Shown: positions 31,654 through 62,676 of the stretch, one piece after another
Layout of the letters: each line of letters opens with the position of its first letter
How positions within the stretch are numbered: position 1 is the stretch's first letter
Source: Escherichia coli
GTDB taxonomy: Bacteria > Pseudomonadota > Gammaproteobacteria > Enterobacterales > Enterobacteriaceae
Length of the DNA: 64,000 nucleotides
Reading direction: 5' to 3' (one strand)
NCBI RefSeq assembly: GCF_003334335.1
Contig: NZ_QOWQ01000001.1
Program-made: the position numbers and the translations under genes
The notes under the pieces: generated by a model
What the model was told of the DNA's origin: nothing
Databases searched by the model: none
Seen by the model: only the letters and a program-made list of their open reading frames with translations

Positions 31654-31881
31654 TTTCATTAATCATTCTGGCATGTCGCACTCTCGCATTTAATCGTTTT
31701 TATCTGGATAGCGCTCTTTTGATCGGCAATGTTGAAATAATGAAAGCGGCATAGATTGAGGGGCAATAATTTGAACTCAGTCGCAAAATTATAATTAAAA
31801 CGGTCATGCTACCTAATATATGCCCGTTTATTGCATCGCGAAATTTGAGAAGACATAACTCATTAAATGAAAGGGATGCAA

Positions 31882-43654: not shown

Positions 43655-46600
43655 TTACACCTCCACGCGGCCCAGCAGATAATGATGATGCTGGTGGACA
43701 TGGCTGATGATGCGGCACATATCGTTCAGCTCCGGTGGTACGTTGTTAAACTGACCTTTGCTGTCGATGTTTAACACCCAGCTTTGGTTATTCAGACGTA
43801 CTCGTACCCGGCAATCTTCCACAAGGAAGCCTGGGTTGCTGCTGTTATCAAAGTCTTGCGCCAGGCTGAAGACGGTGATTTTGTCTTTGTACGGTTTACC
43901 GTTCCACGGACAGAACTGAGCGCAGTTGCCGCATTCGTTACAGTAAGCGTCGAGGTGCAGCGTCTGGAAACGGTTCTGGAAGCCTGGGACCGCAATGGAG
44001 ACGTTGGCGCGGTTCGGGCAGACATCCACACACTTGCTGCAAACGTAGTTACATTCGAGGCAGCGAGCGGCTTCCTGGGCGACAAACGCGTCACGATCGT
44101 CACTGTTCACCAGCGTGATAGAGATATCGCCTTTACGTTGATAGATTTCCGCTGGATTGACGTTGTTCCAGTATTTATCGTTCTGGTGGGAACGGATATT
44201 TTCCCGACTAAGGATGGCATCGGTCGCCCGACGCGCGGTTCCGACAGCAGCGACAATGGAGGATGGTCCGCGCTGTACGTCGCCGATCATAAAGACGTCA
44301 GTCAGACGAGTTTCGCCATTATGGTCGACGTCTGGCCAGCCGTTTTTGTCCAGCGGCACGCCCATCGCATTCAGGGCTTCAGTATCCTGCTGTTCACCAA
44401 TGGCGGTGATCAGGCTGTCTACAAGCAGTGTTACTGTTTCATTGGTTTCAACCGGACGACGACGACCTTTCTCATCCGGTTCGCCAAGCGACATAACGCG
44501 CAAGGTTAAGGTGCCATCAGCATCGAAACGTTCCGGATTATTCAGGAAACGGAACTCTACGCCGTCGTGCAACGCTTCTTCATACTCTTCGCGCCATGCG
44601 GGCATCTCTTGTAGTGAACGACGGTAAACGATCGTTGCTTTTTCTACGCCTGGAACGCGTAACGCCGCACGAGCGCAGTCCATTGCGGTGTTACCCGCCC
44701 CGACAACGACCACATGTTTGCCCAGCTTGAGCGCTGTACCCTTGTTGTATTCACGCAGGAAGGGGAGTGATTTCCAGACATTTTGGTTGTCGCCCGCCAG
44801 TTTCACACCGCTATTTTTATCAGTGCCGGTGGCAATCAGAACATAGTGGAAGCCCTGATTTTTTAACTGCTCAATGGTTAAATCGGGTGAGCAGCCATAC
44901 TCAAATTTCACGCCGTGAGCGGCAACAAAATCGATATCGTGCTGAATTAACTCTGCAGGAATACGGAACTGAGGAATGATATTTTTCACCACGCCGCCCG
45001 CATTGGCTTCGCGTTCAAACAGCGTAACCGGATGGCCCGCTCTGGCAAGGAAGTAACCTGCTGCCAGACCCGCCGGACCTGCACCAATCACGGCAACCGG
45101 ATGGCGTGAACCAGAACCGGCTGGTTTGTGCCAGCGTTGCTTATATTCATCCCAACCTTTTTCCAGCGCGACTTTTTTCAGTTCGCGGATATTCAGCGCA
45201 CTGTCGTAATCCAGGCGGGTACAGTTGTATTGGCACTGGTGATCGCAAATATGACCGGTAATGGCGGGCAGAGCGTTGCGTTGGTAGATGAGTTCCAGCG
45301 CGTCGGCATAGCGGTGTTCGCCAAGCAGACGGATGTATTCCGGAATATCTTGCTTGATAGCGCAGGCAGTAACACAGGGGGCAACGTAGCAGTCGGTCAG
45401 CGGCAGGTCTTCTGCCACTTCAATACGCTCTTCTGGCTTCCAGTGTTTCTGGGTGTATTCCATGGTTAACGCATCTGCTGCCAGTCTGTTCAGTCGTTCG
45501 ACGTCAACATGGTCAAGTCCCCAGGCGTCGGAGCCTTCCAGCTCGCGCATGCAGGCACTTAAGCGCAGATAGCCGCCAGGTTTCAGCAGGTCGGTTGCCA
45601 TAGTAATAGGGCGAATACCTGTATCAAAAATATCGCGGATAGTCAGCTGACTGGCACCACCGGAATAAGAAATGGGCAGTTTGCCGTCAAAGGCGCGAGA
45701 GAGAACTGCTGCAACATTGATGGAGAGCGGGAACAGCGCACGGCCTGACATATACATCTCTTCACCAGGCAGTGCGCCTTTATTGTTGATGGTGCCGAGA
45801 GTGTTAGTCAGTTTTACGCCAAAGCCGAGTGATTTTTCTTTTGCCAGTGCCATCAGGCGTTCCAGCATTTCCAGTGCTTGCGTCAGCTTGAGGTCGTGAT
45901 CAAATGACTCTTCTTTTAAGCCTATGTAACCGAAACCGCAGACATCGAGGATCTCACGAACACGCGCGTACCCCAGTAAGGTCGGGTTAAGTTTCACAAA
46001 GGTGTTGAGCCCTTTTTCTTCCAGCATGTAGCGGCAAATGGCTTCGATTTCATGCGGAGGACAGCCGTGCATGGTGGAGAGGGTGACGCCATGCACCATA
46101 CTGGTGGGGATGCGAGCGGGTAAGGCTTGCAAGCTTTCGCGTTTTTCCTGCAATCCGTGGCGAGCTAAAAATGCGTCATCCTGGAGTAATTTATTCAGCG
46201 TATCGCGATATTGAGCGAATTTCGGATGGTCAGATGCGTCCATCATATTGTCGATGAACTGTTGCATCGGCGGTTGCTTAATACCTTCGAGGTTGTAACC
46301 GACGCTCATATTAAAGATGAACGATTTACCGGAATCAGAAGGCTGGAACATCGCTTCGAGAAGGTGCAGGGCAAACCAGGCTTTGAGGTATTCATCCCAG
46401 GCTTTAAGCAGGGTAAATTCGGTAGACCATTCGGTGTTAAAGCACTCGTCTTCGGCATCGATACAGGGCTTTTCCAGCTCCAGGCGGTCAAGAATTTGGA
46501 CGGTTTTTAGTTCGATGAAGCGTCCGCCAGTCAGCCAGGAAGTGACAATATTTTGCGCGAGCTGCGTGTGCGGGCCAGCGGCAGGGCCGACGGGAGTGGC

Positions 46601-46753
46601 ACAGGTTTCACCGAAGACGCTAACAGTTTTACCTTTTACAGGTGAGTAAAACTGTTGCTCGGGAATACCAAAGATTGAGCGTTGTTGTTGGTATTCATCA
46701 AATATGCGCGTCAAAAGTTCCTCAAACGGAATGGGACGCATAATATCCCCCAT
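43655..46753 (-). CDS. ygfK: Large flavo-iron-sulfur oxidoreductase: barrel domain + GltD-like FeS/FAD/NAD(P)H + 2x[4Fe-4S]. Historically annotated as a putative selenate reductase subunit
   Basis: 1032-aa ORF. Motifs are VKLTNTLG / SYSGGAS (FMN-barrel-like), [67 protein letters not shown] and CNECGNCAQFCP. Confidence 0.92.
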   Translation of the reverse strand: MGDIMRPIPFEELLTRIFDEYQQQRSIFGIPEQQFYSPVKGKTVSVFGETCATPVGPAAGPHTQLAQNIVTSWLTGGRFIELKTVQILDRLELEKPCIDAEDECFNTEWSTEFTLLKAWDEYLKAWFALHLLEAMFQPSDSGKSFIFNMSVGYNLEGIKQPPMQQFIDNMMDASDHPKFAQYRDTLNKLLQDDAFLARHGLQEKRESLQALPARIPTSMVHGVTLSTMHGCPPHEIEAICRYMLEEKGLNTFVKLNPTLLGYARVREILDVCGFGYIGLKEESFDHDLKLTQALEMLERLMALAKEKSLGFGVKLTNTLGTINNKGALPGEEMYMSGRALFPLSINVAAVLSRAFDGKLPISYSGGASQLTIRDIFDTGIRPITMATDLLKPGGYLRLSACMRELEGSDAWGLDHVDVERLNRLAADALTMEYTQKHWKPEERIEVAEDLPLTDCYVAPCVTACAIKQDIPEYIRLLGEHRYADALELIYQRNALPAITGHICDHQCQYNCTRLDYDSALNIRELKKVALEKGWDEYKQRWHKPAGSGSRHPVAVIGAGPAGLAAGYFLARAGHPVTLFEREANAGGVVKNIIPQFRIPAELIQHDIDFVAAHGVKFEYGCSPDLTIEQLKNQGFHYVLIATGTDKNSGVKLAGDNQNVWKSLPFLREYNKGTALKLGKHVVVVGAGNTAMDCARAALRVPGVEKATIVYRRSLQEMPAWREEYEEALHDGVEFRFLNNPERFDADGTLTLRVMSLGEPDEKGRRRPVETNETVTLLVDSLITAIGEQQDTEALNAMGVPLDKNGWPDVDHNGETRLTDVFMIGDVQRGPSSIVAAVGTARRATDAILSRENIRSHQNDKYWNNVNPAEIYQRKGDISITLVNSDDRDAFVAQEAARCLECNYVCSKCVDVCPNRANVSIAVPGFQNRFQTLHLDAYCNECGNCAQFCPWNGKPYKDKITVFSLAQDFDNSSNPGFLVEDCRVRVRLNNQSWVLNIDSKGQFNNVPPELNDMCRIISHVHQHHHYLLGRVEV

Positions 46754-46825
46754 AACCCTCTCCTTAGCTTATACAGATATCATTGAGTGACCGGTGTTGA
46801 GAAATCCGGTGGTTTAGGGGGATAG

Positions 46826-46841
46826 AGCAACAATCGCACCA
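46826..46841 (-). promoter_or_regulatory. Candidate sigma54 (-24/-12) promoter reading into ygfK-ssnA-ygfM-xdhD
   Basis: The minus strand reads GTGGTGC-GATTG-TTGCT. GG-N10-GC spacing is exact and the -12 TTGCT is perfect. The -12 GC is about 75 nt upstream of the ygfK ATG. Confidence 0.45.
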
Positions 46842-46904
46842 CTCTTGCCAGGTTTGGCGGGAAATATAAAAAAATGTGAGGCGGCTCGAAACTTAAGGGC
46901 TTTT

Positions 46905-46920
46905 TGTGAATGAACTCACA
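46905..46920. promoter_or_regulatory. Perfect CRP-consensus palindrome TGTGA-N6-TCACA upstream of ygfK
   Basis: TGTGAATGAACTCACA was read directly. It is centred about 70 bp upstream of the -24 element, with an A-tract (AAATATAAAAAAA, 46862-46874) in between. Confidence 0.5.
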
Positions 46921-47051
46921 GGTGCTAAATGAGAATTAAAATCACTCCTGAAAATTATTATTGCCAGCCCATTTATCAATTTTTCTCTTTTCTCAAAATC
47001 AGTGATTCCTTATCATTATGATAATGAGTGCCGGAAGGATTAAATATTTGA

Positions 47052-47067
47052 ACGCAATCGTTTAACT
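47052..47067. promoter_or_regulatory. PurR-box-like palindrome just downstream of the mocA stop, far upstream of ygfK
   Basis: ACGCAATCGTTTAACT matches ACGCAAACGTTTGCGT at 12/16; the left half matches 7/8. Confidence 0.3.
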
Positions 47068-47074
47068 ACGTTTT

Positions 47075-47653
47075 CTAAATTTCAGTATACCTTTCCTTCG
47101 CTGTAATAAAGTCGTCCGGAGTATCAATATCTAAAATTATTTCTGCATTTTCTATTTCGACGGAATAATGATCTCCCATAAGGAGTGCCTGACGCATATT
47201 GGTGACATTGGGTCGTTGGATTGCCTGCATCAGGCATGGTTTTGACACTAAAATCGGATGGCCGGGGATGCCATTATGGAGTGGCAGTATTGCGCCATCA
47301 TTTCGTAACGACCAGATTTTTCTAAAAATATCGATGGTGAGGGTTGGCATGTCACCGTGGGTGAGAAAACAATGTTCTGTTTGCACTGCGGGTACTGCGG
47401 CCTTGACGGATGTTAGTAAACCCTGCGCATAATCTGGGTTGTGAATAATAGTGATATTGCTCTGGTTCGCATAACGTTCGTGCAGTTCATTACCACGATA
47501 GCCGGTGACTAAAATAATTCGGCTACAAAACTGCAACGCATTTTTGATACTTGTATCAAGAATTGTTCCCTGTTCCCAGGGTAACATCATTTTCCATTGC
47601 CCCATTCTTGATGATAATCCGGCAGCGGTAATTATACAGTCGATGGCTGACAT
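47075..47653 (-). CDS. mocA: Molybdenum cofactor cytidylyltransferase (makes MCD for xanthine-dehydrogenase-family enzymes)
   Basis: 192-aa ORF MSAIDCIITAAGLSSRMGQWKMMLPW... (MobA-like NTP-transferase fold). Visibly lower GC than its neighbours. Confidence 0.92.
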   Translation of the reverse strand: MSAIDCIITAAGLSSRMGQWKMMLPWEQGTILDTSIKNALQFCSRIILVTGYRGNELHERYANQSNITIIHNPDYAQGLLTSVKAAVPAVQTEHCFLTHGDMPTLTIDIFRKIWSLRNDGAILPLHNGIPGHPILVSKPCLMQAIQRPNVTNMRQALLMGDHYSVEIENAEIILDIDTPDDFITAKERYTEI

Positions 47654-47755
47654 AGTGGTTCCATTATTTATAGGGGCTAATAACGCCTGATAATTGCGTT
47701 ACTTCCTGATGGATTAAGTTGGGGATAATTTATCCCAGAGAGGTCATAAAGACTC

Positions 47756-48526
47756 GTGAAAAGTATAGTTGACCCATCGGCATTAGTCATTGATTTAGGT
47801 GCGCAGAAACGTCCCACTGTGATTTCTGTTGTTGGTGCTGGGGGGAAAACCAGCTTGCTTTTTTGGCTGGCAGAACTGCTCCAGGCTAGCGGCAGGCGTG
47901 TGTTAATCACGACGACGACACATATGTTTATGCCAACGTCTCACTGGCCCGTGGTTTTCTGTCGTGATCCCGCCATGCTTCCTCATGCGTCTCTTACATC
48001 CCCCATTTCATTTTGTTTTCACAGCTGGAAAGCGAACCAGGGAAAAGTGCAGGGATTTACGCCAGAAGCGATTGATGCACTGGTGCAACGACCAGAGTGT
48101 GACGTAATTCTCATTGAAGCAGATGGCTCGCGTGGAATGCCGTTAAAAGCGCCTGATGAGCACGAACCTTGCATACCCAAAAGCAGTTGCTGCGTGATTG
48201 CTGTGATGGGAGGACATACTTTGGGCGCGAAAGTGAGCACAGAAAATGTCCATCGCTGGTCGCAGTTTGCTGATATTACCGGGTTAACACCTGATGCAAC
48301 CTTGCAACTGAGCGATCTCGTTGCGCTGGTTCGCCACCCTCAGGGGGCGTTTAAAAACGTACCGCAAGGTTGTCGGCGAGTCTGGTTCATTAACCGTTTT
48401 TCTCAATGTGAGAATGCGATTGCACAAAGCGAGCTCCTTCAACCGCTGCAACAACACGACGTAGAGGCAATCTGGCTGGGCGATATACAAGAACATCCTG
48501 CAATCGCGCGCAGATTTGTGAATTAG
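47756..48526 (+). CDS. yqeC: P-loop accessory protein YqeC (family linked to selenium-dependent Mo hydroxylase maturation)
   Basis: 256-aa ORF with a GTG start and Walker A VVGAGGKTSLL. Confidence 0.85.
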   Translation: MKSIVDPSALVIDLGAQKRPTVISVVGAGGKTSLLFWLAELLQASGRRVLITTTTHMFMPTSHWPVVFCRDPAMLPHASLTSPISFCFHSWKANQGKVQGFTPEAIDALVQRPECDVILIEADGSRGMPLKAPDEHEPCIPKSSCCVIAVMGGHTLGAKVSTENVHRWSQFADITGLTPDATLQLSDLVALVRHPQGAFKNVPQGCRRVWFINRFSQCENAIAQSELLQPLQQHDVEAIWLGDIQEHPAIARRFVN

Positions 48527-48573
48527 CGGCCCGGGTATTCCGGGTTACTGAAAGGATATCCATTGAGGTTGGT

Positions 48574-50199
48574 ATGAATATTTTCACAGAGGCTGCAAAA
48601 CTCGAAGAGCAAAATTGTCCGTTTGCTATGGCGCAAATTGTTGATAGCCGAGGCTCGACTCCCCGCCATTCTGCACAAATGTTAGTGCGCGCCGATGGTT
48701 CTATCGTCGGTACAATTGGTGGCGGAATGGTTGAGCGGAAGGTGATTGAAGAGTCGCTTCAGGCATTGCAGGAACGTAAGCCGCGATTATTCCATGGACG
48801 TATGGCTCGTAACGGTGCGGATGCTGTCGGGTCAGATTGTGGAGGTGCAATGTCAGTATTTATCAGCGTCCATGGTATGCGTCCACGTCTGGTGTTGATT
48901 GGCGCGGGGCATGTCAACCGGGCGATAGCCCAGAGTGCGGCGCTATTAGGATTTGATATTGCCGTTGCTGATATTTATCGCGAAAGCCTCAATCCTGAAC
49001 TATTCCCACCATCAACCACGCTTCTCCATGCTGAGTCGTTTGGTGCGGCAGTGGAAGCACTGGATATTCGCCCTGATAATTTTGTCCTGATTGCCACGAA
49101 TAATCAGGATCGTGAAGCCCTCGACAAACTCATTGAACAGCCCATTGCATGGTTGGGGTTGCTGGCAAGTCGTCGCAAGGTTCAGCTTTTCCTGCGTCAA
49201 TTGCGTGAGAAAGGCGTGGCTGAAGAACATATTGCCCGTTTACATGCGCCCGTTGGTTACAACATAGGTGCGGAAACGCCGCAGGAGATCGCCATCAGCG
49301 TGCTGGCAGAAATATTACAGGTGAAAAATAACGCGCCGGGTGGGCTGATGATGAAACCTTCTCATCCTTCCGGACACCAGCTGGTGGTGATTCGCGGTGC
49401 GGGAGATATCGCCAGTGGTGTGGCGCTACGTCTGTATCATGCGGGTTTTAAAGTGATCATGCTGGAAGTGGAAAAACCGACAGTGATTCGTTGTACCGTG
49501 GCGTTTGCCCAGGCCGTGTTCGATGGCGAAATGACGGTCGAAGGCGTCACTGCTCGCCTGGCAACCAGCTCTGCGGAAGCGATGAAACTTACCGAACGCG
49601 GATTCATTCCTGTGATGGTAGATCCCGCCTGTTCATTGCTTGATGAACTGAAACCGCTTTGCGTGGTGGACGCTATTCTGGCGAAACAGAATTTGGGAAC
49701 GCGGGCAGATATGGCACCAGTAACAATCGCGCTTGGGCCGGGCTTTACTGCTGGGAAGGATTGTCATGCGGTAATTGAAACAAATCGCGGGCACTGGCTC
49801 GGTCAGGTGATTTACTCTGGTTGTGCGCAGGAGAATACCGGTGTTCCTGGCAATATTATGGGGCATACCACCCGACGGGTGATCCGTGCTCCTGCTGCAG
49901 GCATTATGCGATCCAACGTGAAATTAGGCGATCTGGTGAAAGAGGGCGATGTGATTGCCTGGATTGGTGAGCATGAAATTAAAGCACCGTTGACGGGGAT
50001 GGTGCGTGGCTTGTTGAACGACGGCCTGGCAGTGGTTGGTGGTTTTAAAATTGGTGATATCGATCCTCGTGGTGAAACCGCTGATTTCACCAGCGTTTCT
50101 GATAAAGCCCGGGCGATTGGCGGCGGCGTACTTGAGGCGTTAATGATGTTGATGCATCAGGGCGTGAAAGCGACAAAAGAAGTGCTGGAAGTGGCTTAA
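48574..50199 (+). CDS. yqeB: XdhC/CoxI-family Mo-cofactor insertion domain fused to a YqeB-specific C-terminal domain
   Basis: 541-aa ORF with GAGG 6 nt upstream. N-terminal region FAMAQIVDSRGSTPRHSAQMLVRADGSIVGTIGGG and Rossmann-like LVLIGAGHVNRAIA. Confidence 0.9.
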   Translation: MNIFTEAAKLEEQNCPFAMAQIVDSRGSTPRHSAQMLVRADGSIVGTIGGGMVERKVIEESLQALQERKPRLFHGRMARNGADAVGSDCGGAMSVFISVHGMRPRLVLIGAGHVNRAIAQSAALLGFDIAVADIYRESLNPELFPPSTTLLHAESFGAAVEALDIRPDNFVLIATNNQDREALDKLIEQPIAWLGLLASRRKVQLFLRQLREKGVAEEHIARLHAPVGYNIGAETPQEIAISVLAEILQVKNNAPGGLMMKPSHPSGHQLVVIRGAGDIASGVALRLYHAGFKVIMLEVEKPTVIRCTVAFAQAVFDGEMTVEGVTARLATSSAEAMKLTERGFIPVMVDPACSLLDELKPLCVVDAILAKQNLGTRADMAPVTIALGPGFTAGKDCHAVIETNRGHWLGQVIYSGCAQENTGVPGNIMGHTTRRVIRAPAAGIMRSNVKLGDLVKEGDVIAWIGEHEIKAPLTGMVRGLLNDGLAVVGGFKIGDIDPRGETADFTSVSDKARAIGGGVLEALMMLMHQGVKATKEVLEVA

Positions 50200-50206
50200 A
50201 TGAAAA

Positions 50207-50234
50207 TGGCCGGATGGTATTACCCACCCGGCCT
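50207..50234. terminator. 28-nt hairpin, copy 1 (TGGCCGGATGGTATTACCCACCCGGCCT), next to the yqeB stop
   Basis: 10-bp stem with one mismatch. The T-rich run (ATTTTCATTT) lies on the minus-strand side, so it would stop yqeA-direction transcripts. Confidence 0.45.
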
Positions 50235-50256
50235 GAGACTGATGACAAACGCCAAA

Positions 50257-56641: not shown

Positions 56642-56657
56642 AACAATAAGTGTGCCA
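56642..56657 (-). promoter_or_regulatory. Candidate sigma54 (-24/-12) promoter reading into ygeW-dpaL-ygeY-hyuA-yqeA
   Basis: The minus strand reads CTGGCAC-ACTTA-TTGTT. The -24 element is perfect and spacing is exact, but the -12 element is GT instead of GC. The -12 element is about 95 nt upstream of the ygeW ATG. Confidence 0.4.
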
Positions 56658-56700
56658 GAATTATCCGCGCGGCTGCAAAAGACTAATTTGACGGATAATG

Positions 56701-57026: not shown

Positions 57027-58805
57027 ATGGAGCTTGCTACTACGCAGTCAGTATTGATGCAAATTCAACCGACAATTCAGCGTTTTGCCAGAATGCTTGC
57101 CAGCGTTTTGCAGCTTGAGGTTGAGATCGTTGATGAAAACTTGTGTCGCGTTGCCGGAACGGGCGCGTATGGGAAGTTTCTTGGTCGCCAGTTGAGCGGC
57201 AACTCACGCCTGCTCCGCCACGTCCTGGAAACGAAAACTGAAAAAGTTGTGACACAGTCTCGCTTCGATCCCCTTTGCGAAGGTTGCGATAGTAAAGAAA
57301 ATTGCCGCGAAAAAGCATTTCTGGGTACGCCTGTCATTTTACAGGATCGTTGTGTTGGGGTGATAAGTTTGATTGCCGTTACCCACGAGCAACAAGAGCA
57401 TATCAGTGATAATTTACGCGAATTTTCTGATTATGTTCGCCATATATCCACCATTTTTGTTTCGAAACTTCTGGAGGATCAGGGGCCAGGAGATAACATC
57501 AGTAAAATATTTGCGACCATGATCGATAATATGGATCAGGGCGTATTAGTTGTAGATGATGAAAATCGGGTTCAGTTTGTTAATCAGACTGCCTTAAAAA
57601 CACTTGGTGTTGTGCAAAATAATATTATTGGGAAACCTATCCGTTTCAGACCATTAACATTTGAGAGTAATTTTACCCATGGACATATGCAGCATATTGT
57701 TTCATGGGACGATAAAAGTGAATTAATCATTGGTCAATTGCATAACATTCAGGGCCGACAATTATTTTTAATGGCGTTTCACCAATCGCATACCAGTTTT
57801 TCTGTAGCAAATGCACCTGATGAACCGCATATTGAACAATTGGTTGGCGAGTGCCGTGTTATGCGGCAATTAAAACGACTCATTAGCCGTATTGCACCCA
57901 GCCCATCCAGCGTTATGGTGGTTGGTGAAAGCGGCACGGGTAAAGAAGTCGTCGCCCGTGCAATCCATAAGTTGAGCGGAAGACGGAATAAACCCTTTAT
58001 TGCTATCAACTGTGCCGCGATTCCGGAGCAGCTTCTGGAGAGCGAACTGTTCGGTTATGTTAAAGGTGCATTTACTGGCGCTTCTGCCAACGGTAAAACA
58101 GGGTTGATTCAGGCGGCGAATACGGGCACGCTGTTTCTCGATGAAATAGGTGATATGCCATTAATGTTGCAGGCTAAATTACTGCGCGCTATTGAGGCAC
58201 GTGAAATTCTGCCGATTGGTGCCAGTAGCCCAATACAAGTCGACATTCGCATCATTTCTGCAACTAATCAGAATTTGGCCCAGTTCATTGCCGAAGGTAA
58301 ATTCCGCGAAGATCTCTTCTACCGACTTAATGTTATCCCGATAACTCTGCCACCGCTGCGTGAACGTCAGGAAGATATTGAACTATTGGTGCATTACTTT
58401 TTACATCTGCATACCCGTCGTCTGGGATCGGTTTATCCTGGCATTGCTCCCGATGTCGTCGAAATATTGCGTAAGCATCGTTGGCCCGGAAACCTGCGCG
58501 AGTTAAGCAATTTGATGGAATATCTGGTTAACGTGGTTCCTTCAGGTGAAGTTATCGACAGCACGCTATTGCCGCCAAATCTGCTGAATAATGGCACAAC
58601 GGAGCAAAGTGATGTAACAGAGGTCAGTGAGGCGCACCTGTCACTCGATGATGCGGGCGGCACGGCGCTGGAGGAGATGGAAAAGCAAATGATCCGCGAG
58701 GCGCTTTCACGTCATAACAGCAAGAAGCAAGTTGCTGATGAACTGGGCATCGGCATTGCTACGCTCTATCGCAAGATTAAGAAATATGAGTTGTTAAACA
58801 CATAA
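57027..58805 (+). CDS. ygeV: Sigma54-dependent transcriptional activator (bacterial enhancer-binding protein)
   Basis: 592-aa ORF with Walker A GESGTGKE, sigma54-contact loop GAFTGA, Fis-type HTH VADELGIGIATLYRKIKKY and an N-terminal sensor + PAS-like region. Confidence 0.95.
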   Translation: MELATTQSVLMQIQPTIQRFARMLASVLQLEVEIVDENLCRVAGTGAYGKFLGRQLSGNSRLLRHVLETKTEKVVTQSRFDPLCEGCDSKENCREKAFLGTPVILQDRCVGVISLIAVTHEQQEHISDNLREFSDYVRHISTIFVSKLLEDQGPGDNISKIFATMIDNMDQGVLVVDDENRVQFVNQTALKTLGVVQNNIIGKPIRFRPLTFESNFTHGHMQHIVSWDDKSELIIGQLHNIQGRQLFLMAFHQSHTSFSVANAPDEPHIEQLVGECRVMRQLKRLISRIAPSPSSVMVVGESGTGKEVVARAIHKLSGRRNKPFIAINCAAIPEQLLESELFGYVKGAFTGASANGKTGLIQAANTGTLFLDEIGDMPLMLQAKLLRAIEAREILPIGASSPIQVDIRIISATNQNLAQFIAEGKFREDLFYRLNVIPITLPPLRERQEDIELLVHYFLHLHTRRLGSVYPGIAPDVVEILRKHRWPGNLRELSNLMEYLVNVVPSGEVIDSTLLPPNLLNNGTTEQSDVTEVSEAHLSLDDAGGTALEEMEKQMIREALSRHNSKKQVADELGIGIATLYRKIKKYELLNT

Positions 58806-58844: not shown

Positions 58845-59324
58845 TTACTTCGTTTTCTCGCAATCCAGAACTGTATTTACAATCATCTGATACCCCGTGC
58901 AGCGACAAAGATTTCCCGCCAGTCCGCGACGAATTTCCGTAATGGTTAATGGCTTCTCGCGTGGTTTCGCCAGCATTGCCGTGGTAGCCATAATCAGGCC
59001 AGGCGTACAAAACCCGCACTGCACTGCGCCGGATTTCGCATAAGCCTGCTGAACATGAGAAAGTTTTCCGCCTTTCGCTTCACCTTCCAGCGTGCGGATC
59101 TCTTTTCCTTCAGCCCAGGCGGCAAGGTATAAGCAACTGTCTATTGCTGTGCCGTCGACCAACACCGTACAGGCACCACATTCACCCACGCAGCACCCTT
59201 GTTTGACACTTAGCAGTCCTTGTTCGCGGAGTAATTCCGAGAGCGGCGTGCCTGGTGCGGCGTGAAGCTGAAAAGGCATCCCGTTAATGGTGCATTCGAT
59301 GGTAATTGTTTCGCTGTGATTCAT
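58845..59324 (-). CDS. xdhC: Xanthine dehydrogenase [2Fe-2S] subunit
   Basis: 159-aa ORF with both cluster motifs CCVGECGAC...C and CGFCTPG...CRCTGY. Confidence 0.95.
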
Positions 59325-60199
59325 TGCAATTTTCCCCCCGCCGCGGCGACGGCTTCGCTAATCACTTTTTTGGTCATCGTCTGGATGAGATGCAGACGAA
59401 ACTCTTTACTGGCCCGCCATGAAGAACGCGGGGCGACATCTTGCAGGACAGATTCGCTGATAGCTTCCAGCGTTTGCAGGTTTAATGGCGCATTTTGTGC
59501 AGTCTGTTCGGCATGTTGGCAGCGAATCGGCGTTGGCGCGGCAACACCAAATGCCAGGCGTAATTCGCTGAAATTGCCGTTATCCAGTCGGCAATGTGCG
59601 GCGCAGCCAATCGTTGAAATATCCATTGCGTCGCGCATGGCATATTTAAAATGCGCGCTGCCCGCGTGTTCTTTCGGCTGTGGCGGAAAATGAAAGGCGA
59701 CGAGGATTTCGTCATGCTCAAGAGACACTTTGCCCGGCCCGGTGTGAAAGCCATTAATCGGGACGAAACGAACACCGCGCGGGGAGTGGATCTCCAGTTT
59801 CGCGTCATAAATTAGCGTTGGCGTGGCAGAATCTGCGCTGGTGGCACCGTTGCAAATATTTCCACCGTAGGTAGCGACGTTACGGATCTGCGGTCCAGCA
59901 ATGGACGTGGCCGCAGCACATAACGCCGGGAGATGACGTTGAGTTATAGGATCTTCTATTAGCTGGGTAAATGTCGTTGCAGAGCCGATACGTAGCGAGC
60001 CATCTTCCGCCAGCGTAATTCCCCGCAGCTCCGCCAGATTATGAATATCAACAATATGGCGATAACGGTCATTGTGATGGTGGAGCTGAATCAGTACGTC
60101 AGTGCCACCGGCGAGCAGTTTGGCCTGCGGGTTGTCAGCCAGCAGGTTGATGGCATCGGCAAGGGTTGCTGCGCGATGGTAAGAAGCAAAATCAAACAT
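59321..60199 (-). CDS. xdhB: Xanthine dehydrogenase FAD-binding subunit
   Basis: 292-aa ORF with LLAGGTDVL; 4-nt overlap with xdhC. Confidence 0.95.
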
Positions 60200-60209
60200 G
60201 ATGTTATCC

Positions 60210-62468
60210 TCAAATCAATCCTGCCAGATGGAACTCTTCATATAACCGTTTTGGCGTCAGCGGCAGTGTATTGATTGCAACACCGGTAGCCATCTTCACC
60301 GCGTTACGAATAGCAGCGGCAACAGGAATTATTGGTGGCTCACCCAGTGACTTATGTCCGTATGCGGATTGCGGCTCATTGATTTCGACGAACGCGCTTT
60401 CCAGTTGTGGCAGATCCGGCATGGTCGGCATTTTGTAATCCAGCAGATTGGGGTTACGGACCACGCCGCTTTTAGCATCGATGATCATCTCTTCAAATAG
60501 CGCCCAGCCAATGCCCATTCCCATTCCGCCGTGTACCTGACCTTCTGCCAGCAGTGGATTAAGAATATGCCCTGAATCATGAACGTTGAGGATGCGGTTG
60601 ATGGTGACTTTGCACAGCGCAATATCGACCGTCAGATCAACAAAGGTACAGCCAAACGCCGGTGGGTTAGTGGTGGTTTTGATGGAGCTTTCAGCAGAGA
60701 GCTGCCCGCCGCGTTCAGGGTGGTAGAAAGCGTCCATCGCCAAATCTTTTAACGACATTAACGGCTCTTCCGGTCGTTCAACCAGCACGATATGGCCTTT
60801 TATCAGGGTCAGATTCATCGCTGACTGATGTAGCATGACTGCGGCGTGAGCGATGATTTTCTCTTTTAATAATAGTGCCGCACTGCGCAGCGCAGGCGCG
60901 GCAACATAGCTCTGGCGTGAGGCAAATGCGCCGGGATCGAACGGCGTAACGTCGGTATCTTGAGTTGAAATAACGCGAACGTCGCTGACCGGAACCCCCA
61001 CGGTTTCTGCCACCATTTGCGAGAAGACGGTGTCGGCACCCTGACCGATTTCCGTCGCGCCGCTTTGCACGTTGATGGTTCCATCCTGATTCATCAGAAG
61101 GCGCGCGCCTGCTATTTCTACGCCGACAGGCCAGGTGTTAGAGGTGTAGCTAAAACAGGCGACGCCAACGCCGCGGCGCAAATTGCCTTGCTGGTTCTGG
61201 CATTCTGCACGGCGTTTTTCCCATTCAAAGATTTTCCGGCCTTTTTCAAGACACTCCGGCAACCCTGCGCTGTAAATACGTTTGCCCGTGAGCGGATTAG
61301 CATCTCCTTCGCGGGCGGCGTTGCGTAAACGAATTTCAACAGGATCAATACCTAACGCTGTCGCGGCGTCATCAAGCATAGACTCAACGGCAAATACGAC
61401 TTGTGGCGCGCCATAACCACGCATCGCACCAGCCGAGGGGAGGTTGGTATAGCAGGTCTTTGAACTGTAAGCGTAGGCACAACGAGGATAAAGGTAAGCG
61501 ACTTTATTCCCCCCCGCAGAAGCGATGGAGTGCCCGTGAGATGCATAAGCGCCGGTGTTAGACAGAACATCCAGACTATAACCTTTCAATGTTCCGTCGC
61601 GGTTCACGCCCATTTGCCCGTCAATGGTAAAAGCGTGGCGGGTACGGGTTGCGAGGAAACACTCTTCACGGCTAAGGGAAACTTTCACCGGAATGCCGCC
61701 AAGCTTGCTGGTCAGGAATGCCGCCATTGGCTCTTCCAGTACATCCTGTTTATTACCAAAACCGCCACCGACAAATGGTTTGATGACTCGTACGCATGAC
61801 CAGGGAATATCCAGCGCCTGACCAACCACGCGGCGAACAATGTGCGGGATCTGGGTGCTGGAAACGATGGTAATTCGCGAGTCATCCTCCATCCACGCCA
61901 GCGATGTTACGCTTTCCATGTGACAATGTTGAATAACGGGGGTCTGATAGTGCCCCTGTACCTGGTAGTCGGCGGCATCGATTGTTTGTTGGACATTACC
62001 CGTCGACATCGTGCTTTGTTTCAGTAAATTGCCACCGTTATGGATTGGTGCAGCGTCTTCTGCCAGCGCCGCTTCTGGCGTGGTGATAACGGGTAATTCT
62101 TGCCACTCAATGCTGACCAATTGCGCCGCTTTTTCTGCCGTGAGTTCATCGCGGGCCACGACGATGGCAACGGCGTCACCATGATGACGAACATGGCGAG
62201 TTAGCAGTGCGCGATCGGCGGTATCGCGCTTGTTTTCGTCAAGTGTCCAGGCATGCCCAGCTGTAGCGAATGGAATATCAGGCACATCTTCCCAGGTAAA
62301 AATCGCCAGTACGCCCGGCAAACTTCTGGCTTGTTCATCATTAATACTTACGGCATAACCATGTGCGATAGGGCTACGTACATATTTCGCATAACACATG
62401 CCCGCCATAACATAATCGTCAGTATATCGTGCCCGCCCGGTGACCTTAGCAATGGCATCGACGCGCAT
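60210..62468 (-). CDS. xdhA: Xanthine dehydrogenase molybdenum-binding subunit
   Basis: ORF 60210..62507. ATG 62468 (MRVDAIAKVTGRARYTDDY) gives the remembered 752 aa. The upstream ATG 62507 has the better SD (see findings). Confidence 0.92.
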   Translation of the reverse strand: MRVDAIAKVTGRARYTDDYVMAGMCYAKYVRSPIAHGYAVSINDEQARSLPGVLAIFTWEDVPDIPFATAGHAWTLDENKRDTADRALLTRHVRHHGDAVAIVVARDELTAEKAAQLVSIEWQELPVITTPEAALAEDAAPIHNGGNLLKQSTMSTGNVQQTIDAADYQVQGHYQTPVIQHCHMESVTSLAWMEDDSRITIVSSTQIPHIVRRVVGQALDIPWSCVRVIKPFVGGGFGNKQDVLEEPMAAFLTSKLGGIPVKVSLSREECFLATRTRHAFTIDGQMGVNRDGTLKGYSLDVLSNTGAYASHGHSIASAGGNKVAYLYPRCAYAYSSKTCYTNLPSAGAMRGYGAPQVVFAVESMLDDAATALGIDPVEIRLRNAAREGDANPLTGKRIYSAGLPECLEKGRKIFEWEKRRAECQNQQGNLRRGVGVACFSYTSNTWPVGVEIAGARLLMNQDGTINVQSGATEIGQGADTVFSQMVAETVGVPVSDVRVISTQDTDVTPFDPGAFASRQSYVAAPALRSAALLLKEKIIAHAAVMLHQSAMNLTLIKGHIVLVERPEEPLMSLKDLAMDAFYHPERGGQLSAESSIKTTTNPPAFGCTFVDLTVDIALCKVTINRILNVHDSGHILNPLLAEGQVHGGMGMGIGWALFEEMIIDAKSGVVRNPNLLDYKMPTMPDLPQLESAFVEINEPQSAYGHKSLGEPPIIPVAAAIRNAVKMATGVAINTLPLTPKRLYEEFHLAGLI

Positions 62469-62562
62469 GCATGATTCACCCGTAGCGGTTGCTTCCCGCG
62501 CTTCCATAGAAATCCCCTCGATTTGAACATTTGGTTCTTATGGCAAAGATTTAGTCTAAGCA

Positions 62563-62578
62563 GGCAAGATTTACGCCA
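62563..62578 (-). promoter_or_regulatory. Candidate sigma54 (-24/-12) promoter reading into xdhABC
   Basis: The minus strand reads CTGGCGT-AAATC-TTGCC. GG-N10-GC spacing is exact and TGGC/TTGC are conserved. The -12 GC is about 55 nt (ATG 62507) or 95 nt (ATG 62468) upstream of the start. Confidence 0.4.
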
Positions 62579-62676
62579 GAAACGACGATAAGCGTTAGGG
62601 GAGGTAGGAAGTGTGATGACGTTAAAAAAACACAGATATGATACGAAACAGGACTCTGAATAGGGGCAGTGATACG

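Follow-up and report, generated by a model that had tools for sequence, protein, structure and literature searches.

Genes mocA, yqeC and yqeB of Escherichia coli as a candidate molybdenum cofactor maturation module in the purine and urate catabolic block

Genes and promoters of the locus

Of the routes by which biology uses selenium, its placement on the molybdenum cofactor is the one least understood. The enzymes that would receive such a cofactor control the anaerobic breakdown of purines and urate by gut bacteria, which bears on host urate levels and gout. Here, we analysed a stretch of 64,000 nucleotides of Escherichia coli DNA (contig NZ_QOWQ01000001.1), hereafter called the window, with a focus on three genes of its catabolic block: mocA (ygfJ), yqeC and yqeB. 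On balance, the results favour the view that these genes form a trans-acting module for the maturation of molybdopterin cytosine dinucleotide (MCD) within the purine and urate regulon, most likely serving two enzymes, XdhD-YgfM and XdhABC. Databases and literature already contain the genes, their names and the selenium hypothesis; RefSeq lists the products as molybdenum cofactor cytidylyltransferase (mocA), selenium cofactor biosynthesis protein YqeC (yqeC) and selenium-dependent molybdenum cofactor biosynthesis protein YqeB (yqeB). The finding is of value as a pointer to a clean experiment and not as a discovery. E. coli holds the complete set, namely MocA, YqeC, YqeB, two candidate clients and a SelD encoded elsewhere on the chromosome, and is the easiest organism in which the question can be settled.

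Positions 47,000–50,250 were 100% identical to E. coli K-12 MG1655 and to many other strains, and this segment was found in 5,176 of 5,426 complete E. coli genomes. The three genes sit between the operons ygfK-ssnA-ygfM-xdhD and ygeW-ygeX-ygeY-hyuA-yqeA, with ygeV and xdhABC further on. The original prediction for this DNA, made from the sequence alone, had described mocA as divergent from yqeC-yqeB; this arrangement was recovered with exact coordinates and a spacer of 102 bp. The locations of the genes, domains and promoters are shown in Table 1.

Table 1. Features of the mocA-yqeC-yqeB locus and of the surrounding catabolic block, in window positions.
Feature	Positions	Strand	Basis or remark
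mocA (ygfJ)	47075-47653	-	192-aa ORF (open reading frame); TIGR03310, PF12804; RefSeq
mocA/yqeC divergent spacer, 102 bp	47654-47755	.	GC 0.39
yqeC, SIMIBI-class P-loop NTPase (modelled), selenium-cofactor trait marker	47756-48526	+	GTG start
YqeC Walker-A P-loop GAGGKTS (aa 27-33)	47834-47854	+	invariant in 22/22 aligned homologues
sigma-54 promoter within yqeC, for yqeB, TGAGCACGAACCTTGCA	48157-48173	+	PMC4591121 motif, exact match in window
yqeB, XdhC-type molybdenum cofactor chaperone (putative) fused to TIGR03309 domain	48574-50199	+	541-aa ORF, domain matches, RefSeq
YqeB N-terminal module (aa 12-247), XdhC_CoxI + XdhC Rossmann	48607-49314	+	PF02625, PF13478
YqeB C-terminal domain (aa 271-526), TIGR03309 / EF2563 family	49384-50151	+	
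terminator-like 10-bp GC-rich hairpin with T tail, between convergent yqeB and yqeA	50208-50233	-	consensus scan; function inferred
xdhD; ygfM	38627-41497; 41494-42273	-	urate to 2,8-dioxopurine reductase; candidate client 1
xdhC, xdhB, xdhA, xanthine dehydrogenase	58845-62507	-	annotation and family scores; candidate client 2
ygeV, sigma-54 enhancer-binding protein of the block	57027-58805	+	annotation; probable common regulator, link inferred
sigma-54 promoter of ygfK-ssnA-ygfM-xdhD	46826-46842	-	PMC4591121 motif located in window
sigma-54 promoter of xdhABC	62563-62579	-	PMC4591121 motif located in window
sigma-54 promoter of ygeW	56642-56658		PMC4591121 motif located in window
sigma-54 promoter of ygfT	31819-31835		PMC4591121 motif located in window

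The two genes yqeC and yqeB do not constitute a simple operon, as the promoter for yqeB, 399 nt upstream of that gene, falls within the coding sequence of yqeC. This sigma-54 promoter has been validated, and its mutation rendered YqeB undetectable (Bonocora et al., 2015; PMC4591121). Its position therefore uncouples yqeB expression from yqeC and ties it to the sigma-54 regulon of the block. Sigma-54 promoters precede yqeB, xdhABC and ygfK-ssnA-ygfM-xdhD alike, and YgeV is the probable common regulator. A YgeV-like activator was also found between mocA and xdhABC in Azotosporobacter soli. A sigma-70 promoter in the spacer between mocA and yqeC was considered and rejected, since the seven sigma-70-like hexamer matches in the mocA-yqeC region were not above the shuffled expectation (5.3 ± 2.6).

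No selA, selB, selD or selU gene is annotated in the 64 kb, as expected from the earlier claim that selD and the Sec machinery are absent from the vicinity, and no Rfam or selenocysteine insertion sequence (SECIS) match was obtained within 37–63 kb of the window. The sole tRNA of the window is tRNA-Gly(CCC). A check of the reading frames showed xdhD, ygfM, ssnA, ygfK and xdhABC to be free of internal stop codons; for xdhD, ygfK and ssnA, the absence of an in-frame TGA had already been asserted. One name in the block is outdated. YgfK (43,655–46,753), still carried in RefSeq as "putative selenate reductase subunit", is an NADPH-dependent 2,8-dioxopurine reductase according to two papers from 2025, and its activity neither needs nor gains from selenate (Liu et al., 2025).

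Domain composition of MocA, YqeC and YqeB

MocA scored 214.2 bits against TIGR03310 (equivalog cut-off 186.45) and 99.5 bits against PF12804, which has the MobA-like NTP-transferase fold. Both matches agree with its first description as a MobA-like cytidylyltransferase. The CTP-specific cytidylylation of Mo-molybdopterin by this same MocA is attributed to Neumann et al. (2009) in the account given in PMC2997495.

YqeC scored 240.9 bits against TIGR03172 (cut-off 73.05) and 144.2 bits against PF19842 (cut-off 27.6). The P-loop GAGGKTS, which had been noticed in the original prediction, was confirmed as residues G27 to S33; it was invariant across the 22 aligned YqeC homologues, which are mostly proteobacterial, and the family motifs were likewise invariant. 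YqeC models as a SIMIBI-class nucleoside triphosphatase (NTPase) fold, an assignment that is new in this analysis. This would place it in the same fold class as the metallocentre-assembly NTPases UreG, HypB, CooC, ApbC/Nbp35 and ArsA.

In Moorella thermoacetica (CP012370.1), YqeC and MocA are fused within one ORF of 455 residues (L083:8525–9892), in which YqeC (TIGR03172) covers residues 14–227 and MocA (TIGR03310) residues 262–448. The fused gene lies just upstream of yqeB-C, the gene for the YqeB C-terminal domain, and near a TIGR03311 Se_dep_XDH gene; the fusion is newly noted here. The pair of MocA and YqeC, linked by a divergent or fused gene arrangement, can be compared with MobA and MobB of the guanine-dinucleotide branch of molybdenum cofactor synthesis, which are likewise a MobA-fold nucleotidyltransferase and a small P-loop NTPase. 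MobB is dispensable, and YqeC, which appears dispensable in Clostridioides difficile, can be likened to it in this respect as well. Deletion of C. difficile yqeC gave no phenotype on its own (Johnstone and Self, 2024; PMC11448449). YqeC as a homologue of MobB was rejected: hhalign gave a probability of 3.7% (E 0.012) with an E. coli MobB sequence, and Pfam at E ≤ 10 returned no MobB match. The comparison was retained as a functional analogy only.

The N-terminal half of YqeB matched XdhC_CoxI (PF02625, residues 12–74) with 70.7 bits (cut-off 24.3) and XdhC_C (PF13478, residues 106–247) with 118.7 bits (cut-off 29.7). It failed the classical XdhC equivalog TIGR02964, with 110.8 bits against a cut-off of 161.6. 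On the strength of these scores, we regard this half as a divergent XdhC-like module. The C-terminal residues 271–526 scored 417 bits against TIGR03309 (cut-off 220), so that the earlier description of an XdhC/CoxI-type domain followed by an extra domain of ∼270 residues was correct. E. coli YqeB carries each of the 47 residues that are invariant in the TIGR03309 alignment, and the domain is kept at full length in 5,159 of the 5,426 E. coli genomes. In the model of the C-terminal domain, a Rossmann-like half that would bind nucleotides is joined to a lipoyl-like barrel, a result that is also new here. A conserved cysteine as selenium carrier was rejected, given that the TIGR03309 alignment contains no invariant cysteine and that YqeC Cys139 (HEPCIP), invariant in the 22 mostly proteobacterial sequences, is replaced by valine in Moorella (HEPVIP).

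YqeB has been described as the second XdhC homologue of E. coli and proposed as an XdhC-type chaperone for XdhABC and XdhD, with the sharing between the two left open (Neumann and Leimkühler, 2011; PMC2997495). Rhodobacter capsulatus XdhC and E. coli PaoD are chaperones dedicated to one system each, which bind, sulfurate and insert the molybdenum cofactor. The N-terminal half of YqeB, with both XdhC Pfam domains, would be expected to bind and insert MCD (PMC2997495). Unlike XdhC and PaoD, YqeB carries the fused C-terminal domain and stays below the TIGR02964 cut-off, and its gene has its own sigma-54 promoter and does not share a transcript with any one client enzyme.

The selenium link and the candidate client enzymes

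Haft and Self (2008; PMC2276186) proposed that YqeB, YqeC and YgfJ (MocA) serve selenium-dependent molybdenum hydroxylases (SDMH) in an accessory role. The present locus consists of the very genes (b2875–b2877) behind that proposal; the family matches, the XdhC fusion and the position in the purine and urate block are identical, with no sequence difference. The same accessory set is also attributed to Zhang et al. (2008). The families were reported to co-occur with an orphan selD in Enterococcus faecalis, in Haloarcula marismortui and in Clostridium phytofermentans, and TIGR03309 was found to be confined to selD-positive genomes (PMC2276186). What the original prediction had stated of YqeB, YqeC and orphan SelD is therefore in the published record, and its suggestion of a labile selenium ligand for a molybdenum hydroxylase matches the published reading (PMC2276186) and the RefSeq names.

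Genetic and biochemical support comes from clostridia. Mutants of C. difficile in selD or yqeB can no longer grow on xanthine and urate (Johnstone and Self, 2024; PMC11448449). In Clostridium sporogenes, the urate-reducing 2,8-dioxopurine dehydrogenase (DOPDH) purified from a selD mutant was inactive, and the selD mutant phenocopied a double mutant of xanthine dehydrogenase (XDH) and DOPDH (Liu et al., 2025, preprint; bioRxiv 10.1101/2025.04.24.650524). Both enzymes are therefore SelD-dependent in that species.

The candidate clients in E. coli were characterised by their family scores. XdhD scored 2,123 bits against TIGR03313 and YgfM 490 bits against TIGR03312, while XdhA scored 1,486 bits against NF007426 and 1,216 bits against NF043082 (equivalog cut-off 780). 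The Se_dep_XDH family TIGR03311 (cut-off 830 bits) was reached by neither XdhD (300 bits) nor XdhA (376 bits). E. coli XdhD-YgfM reduces urate to 2,8-dioxopurine and XdhA oxidises xanthine, and a ΔxdhA mutant does not consume xanthine; selenium is not addressed in that study (Li et al., 2025; PMC12507026). E. coli shares with the C. sporogenes DOPDH (XdhAC) and the gut-bacterial XDH (Liu et al., 2025) the pathway that leads from urate through 2,8-dioxopurine to pyruvate, as well as the YqeB/YqeC accessory markers, and XdhD performs the DOPDH reaction. The enzymes themselves differ: XdhD is a protein of 956 residues in TIGR03313 with the FAD subunit YgfM and is NADH-linked, whereas the Firmicute fused type has ∼850 residues and belongs to TIGR03311, the family to which the length and domain layout of C. 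sporogenes DOPDH point. As XdhD lies outside TIGR03311, the clostridial selenium result on DOPDH reaches it by functional analogy only. For XdhA the relationship is closer, with 45–46% identity to the Firmicute XdhA, of which it is, by sequence, a clear orthologue.

Gene neighbourhoods can indicate which proteins work together. We surveyed 80 loci of YqeB C-terminal domain homologues from other species, together with seven reached via individual proteins, and examined a span of 10 kb for hydroxylase genes. A core of an XdhC-like gene, yqeC, a mocA-like gene and yqeB-C recurred in Proteobacteria, Firmicutes, Spirochaetes and Actinobacteria. The core was often without a hydroxylase within this span, as in Collinsella, Sphaerochaeta and several Clostridia, and the pattern fits a shared trans-acting system. 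Where hydroxylases stood beside the core, they fell into at least four groups. The XdhD type (TIGR03313) was found in Enterobacterales, Aeromonas and Vibrio mediterranei (L004, L006, L007, L009 and L013), with xdhD-ygfM directly abutting mocA-yqeC-yqeB in V. mediterranei (L013). The XdhA type (NF043082) was found at L046/L091, L092, L047 and L094, and the fused Se_dep_XDH (TIGR03311, 1,578 bits) in Moorella (L083). A further two-subunit type occurred in Vibrio, Photobacterium and Denitrovibrio (L008, L010, L011 and L082).

The XdhA type was of particular relevance to the choice of client. The protein next to yqeB at L046 scored 1,202 bits against NF043082 and was 46% identical to E. coli XdhA. 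In a Bacillota metagenome-assembled genome (MAG; L091:9130–13699), yqeB-C lay immediately upstream of xdhA-xdhB-xdhC. In A. soli (L092:3119–13770), the order was yqeB-C, yqeC, a molybdenum cofactor gene, mocA, the YgeV-like activator, an amidohydrolase gene and xdhABC. The XdhA, XdhB and XdhC proteins of L046/L091 and L092 were 45–49% identical to the E. coli subunits, and no XdhD-type gene was present within 10 kb. A Synergistales contig carried a fused enzyme and xdhABC side by side. At one further Firmicute locus (L088:9289–14424), yqeC, yqeB-C and xdhC adjoin an EF2568-type cysteine desulfurase/selenocysteine lyase (SclA), the selenium transporter YedE, TusA and Se_S_carrier; it looks like a compact selenium supply-and-insertion locus, and these neighbours reinforce the selenium link.

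At L008, L010 and L011, a separate-subunit hydroxylase occupies, or lies near, the position of E. coli xdhD-ygfM. It is 25–28% identical to XdhA and XdhD, falls below all NCBIfam cut-offs, and adjoins ssnA-ygfK (L008 and L010) or mocA (L011). Different lineages may use non-orthologous enzymes for the urate-reducing step. Selenocysteine in a neighbouring hydroxylase was also considered for the molybdenum subunit of a Denitrovibrio MAG (L082:18599, beside ssnA) and rejected, as its in-frame stop is TAG and not TGA; the stop is probably a pseudogene mark or an assembly error.

Proposed mechanism and alternative explanations

The module would act through five steps. MocA joins CMP to Mo-molybdopterin to give MCD, a step that the literature documents for MocA itself. 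The XdhC-like half of YqeB would then hold MCD and insert it into the apo-enzymes, as its homology to R. capsulatus XdhC and PaoD suggests. The TIGR03309 domain of YqeB may exchange a terminal oxo or sulfido ligand of the molybdenum for selenium drawn from SelD-made selenophosphate, a role proposed because of the strict co-occurrence of TIGR03309 with selD and the clostridial selD and yqeB phenotypes. YqeC may work with MocA, as suggested by the fusion in Moorella, and could drive or gate the hand-off of the cofactor; its part is probably facilitating rather than essential, given the lack of a phenotype in the C. difficile single deletion. Finally, its own sigma-54 promoter would turn on yqeB alongside the sigma-54 operons of both candidate clients. 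The selenium part of this scheme, in which E. coli K-12 makes labile-selenium molybdenum hydroxylases, with XdhD-YgfM and XdhABC receiving selenido-MCD assembled on YqeB and YqeC acting as a MocA-coupled NTPase, is put forward tentatively and with somewhat less than even confidence. If true, E. coli would use selenium in a third way, one that biochemistry has never revealed in this species, and the chemistry of selenium insertion would become tractable in the best available genetic system.

Several points weigh against this scheme. Gene neighbourhood is an association and not proof of which enzyme receives the cofactor, and the chemical roles given here to YqeC and the TIGR03309 domain are read from fold and context only. 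The lack of an invariant cysteine in the YqeB C-terminal domain and the variable Cys139 of YqeC leave a classical persulfide or perselenide relay unsupported. The searchable literature, to which most subscription papers do not belong, yielded no report of selenium content, selD dependence or a yqeB or yqeC phenotype for the E. coli molybdenum hydroxylases. According to Haft and Self (PMC2276186), E. coli has never yielded a labile-selenium enzyme, and the purification protocol for active XdhD-YgfM from E. coli mentions neither selenium supplementation nor anaerobic handling (PMC12507026), which is compatible with an active sulfur form.

The last two points are also what speaks for the main rival, in which the role of the E. 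coli module is limited to making, sulfurating and inserting MCD, no selenium is used and the selenium link of the families belongs to other lineages. The presence of a complete XdhC-like chaperone module within YqeB also speaks for it. The presence of selD is uninformative here, because E. coli already requires it for selenocysteine and selenouridine. We nevertheless consider this explanation unlikely, though it deserves to be taken seriously. E. coli has kept the TIGR03309 domain intact, with all of its invariant residues and at full length in nearly all of the genomes, and the family is confined to selD-positive genomes (PMC2276186). In C. difficile, the loss of yqeB phenocopies the loss of selD (PMC11448449). 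Furthermore, an ordinary XdhC would suffice for sulfuration, and sulfur alone would thus leave the extra domain of YqeB and YqeC without a role.

The original prediction had named XdhD, and not XdhA, as the client. In this narrower form, selenium would be delivered to XdhD(-YgfM) only, and XdhABC would be an ordinary sulfido enzyme that is matured independently. XdhD as a client is plausible, as it is a urate reductase that carries out the reaction of the SelD-dependent C. sporogenes DOPDH and its gene abuts the module in V. mediterranei. In E. coli, xdhD is also nearer to the module (∼5.6 kb) than xdhA (∼10 kb), and across the 5,426 genomes the count of the island (5,176) is nearly equal to that of xdhD (5,178), against 5,322 for xdhA, with ∼140 genomes having xdhA without the island. 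The exclusion of XdhA is unsupported. C. sporogenes XDH needs SelD too, the Firmicute XdhABC orthologues adjoin yqeB, yqeC and mocA with no XdhD-type gene nearby, and XdhD, as shown above, lies outside TIGR03311. In the phylogenetic profile of Haft and Self, xdhA had the better rank (6, against 14 for ygfN/xdhD; PMC2276186), and E. coli has no other known XdhC-type chaperone that could serve XdhABC (PMC2997495). The sigma-54 promoters shared by yqeB, xdhABC and the xdhD operon likewise speak against an exclusive link to XdhD. Delivery to XdhD alone is consequently held to be improbable.

The presence and absence counts were rejected as a test of the client. In the one genome inspected, E. coli ET776 (L002, NZ_CP100909.1 920433–943083), an IS1-associated deletion runs from ygfT into ygeV and takes xdhD, mocA, yqeC and yqeB; xdhABC is left intact, as a remnant without MocA, YqeB or the sigma-54 activator. 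Since mocA and the regulator are lost in this block deletion as well, the counts mirror physical linkage, and the gap between xdhA and the island is explained in the case examined.

The base composition of the locus could also suggest a recently acquired foreign island within the catabolic block. The GC content falls to 0.39–0.43 over 46,750–47,750 against ∼0.52 in the flanks (mocA 0.432, with 0.420 at third codon positions; flanking intergenic DNA 0.38–0.39; xdhD, ssnA and ygfK 0.52–0.53; window 0.515), so that the region, and mocA especially, is indeed AT-richer than the flanking enzyme genes, as had been remarked. Such an origin is hardly credible and was rejected, as Citrobacter, Pluralibacter, Aeromonas and Arsenophonus share the order ygfK-mocA-yqeC-yqeB-yqeA, mocA is the lowest-GC gene of the cluster also in Citrobacter (0.474) and Pluralibacter (0.530), the annotation of this region lists no mobile-element genes, and MocA (71%) and YqeC (63%) are the fastest-evolving proteins of the block, with 86–97% identity to Citrobacter for the enzymes. 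Low GC is therefore a gene-level trait of mocA that is common to these relatives and no mark of recent insertion.

The gene content of the block varied in individual genomes. Raoultella ornithinolytica (L005) keeps ssnA-ygfK-mocA-yqeC-yqeB and, further along, ygeV, and xdhD/ygfM and xdhCBA are absent within the 20.8 kb examined. In Buttiauxella izardii (L009), 352 bp separate ygfK from yqeC, so mocA is absent there. In E. coli ECGI0523 (L003, CP178306.1), the tblastn matches to ygfM, ssnA, ygfK, mocA, hyuA and ygeY were low-identity fragments and the neighbouring genes were 100% identical, which suggests a stretch of the assembly that is rich in frameshifts.

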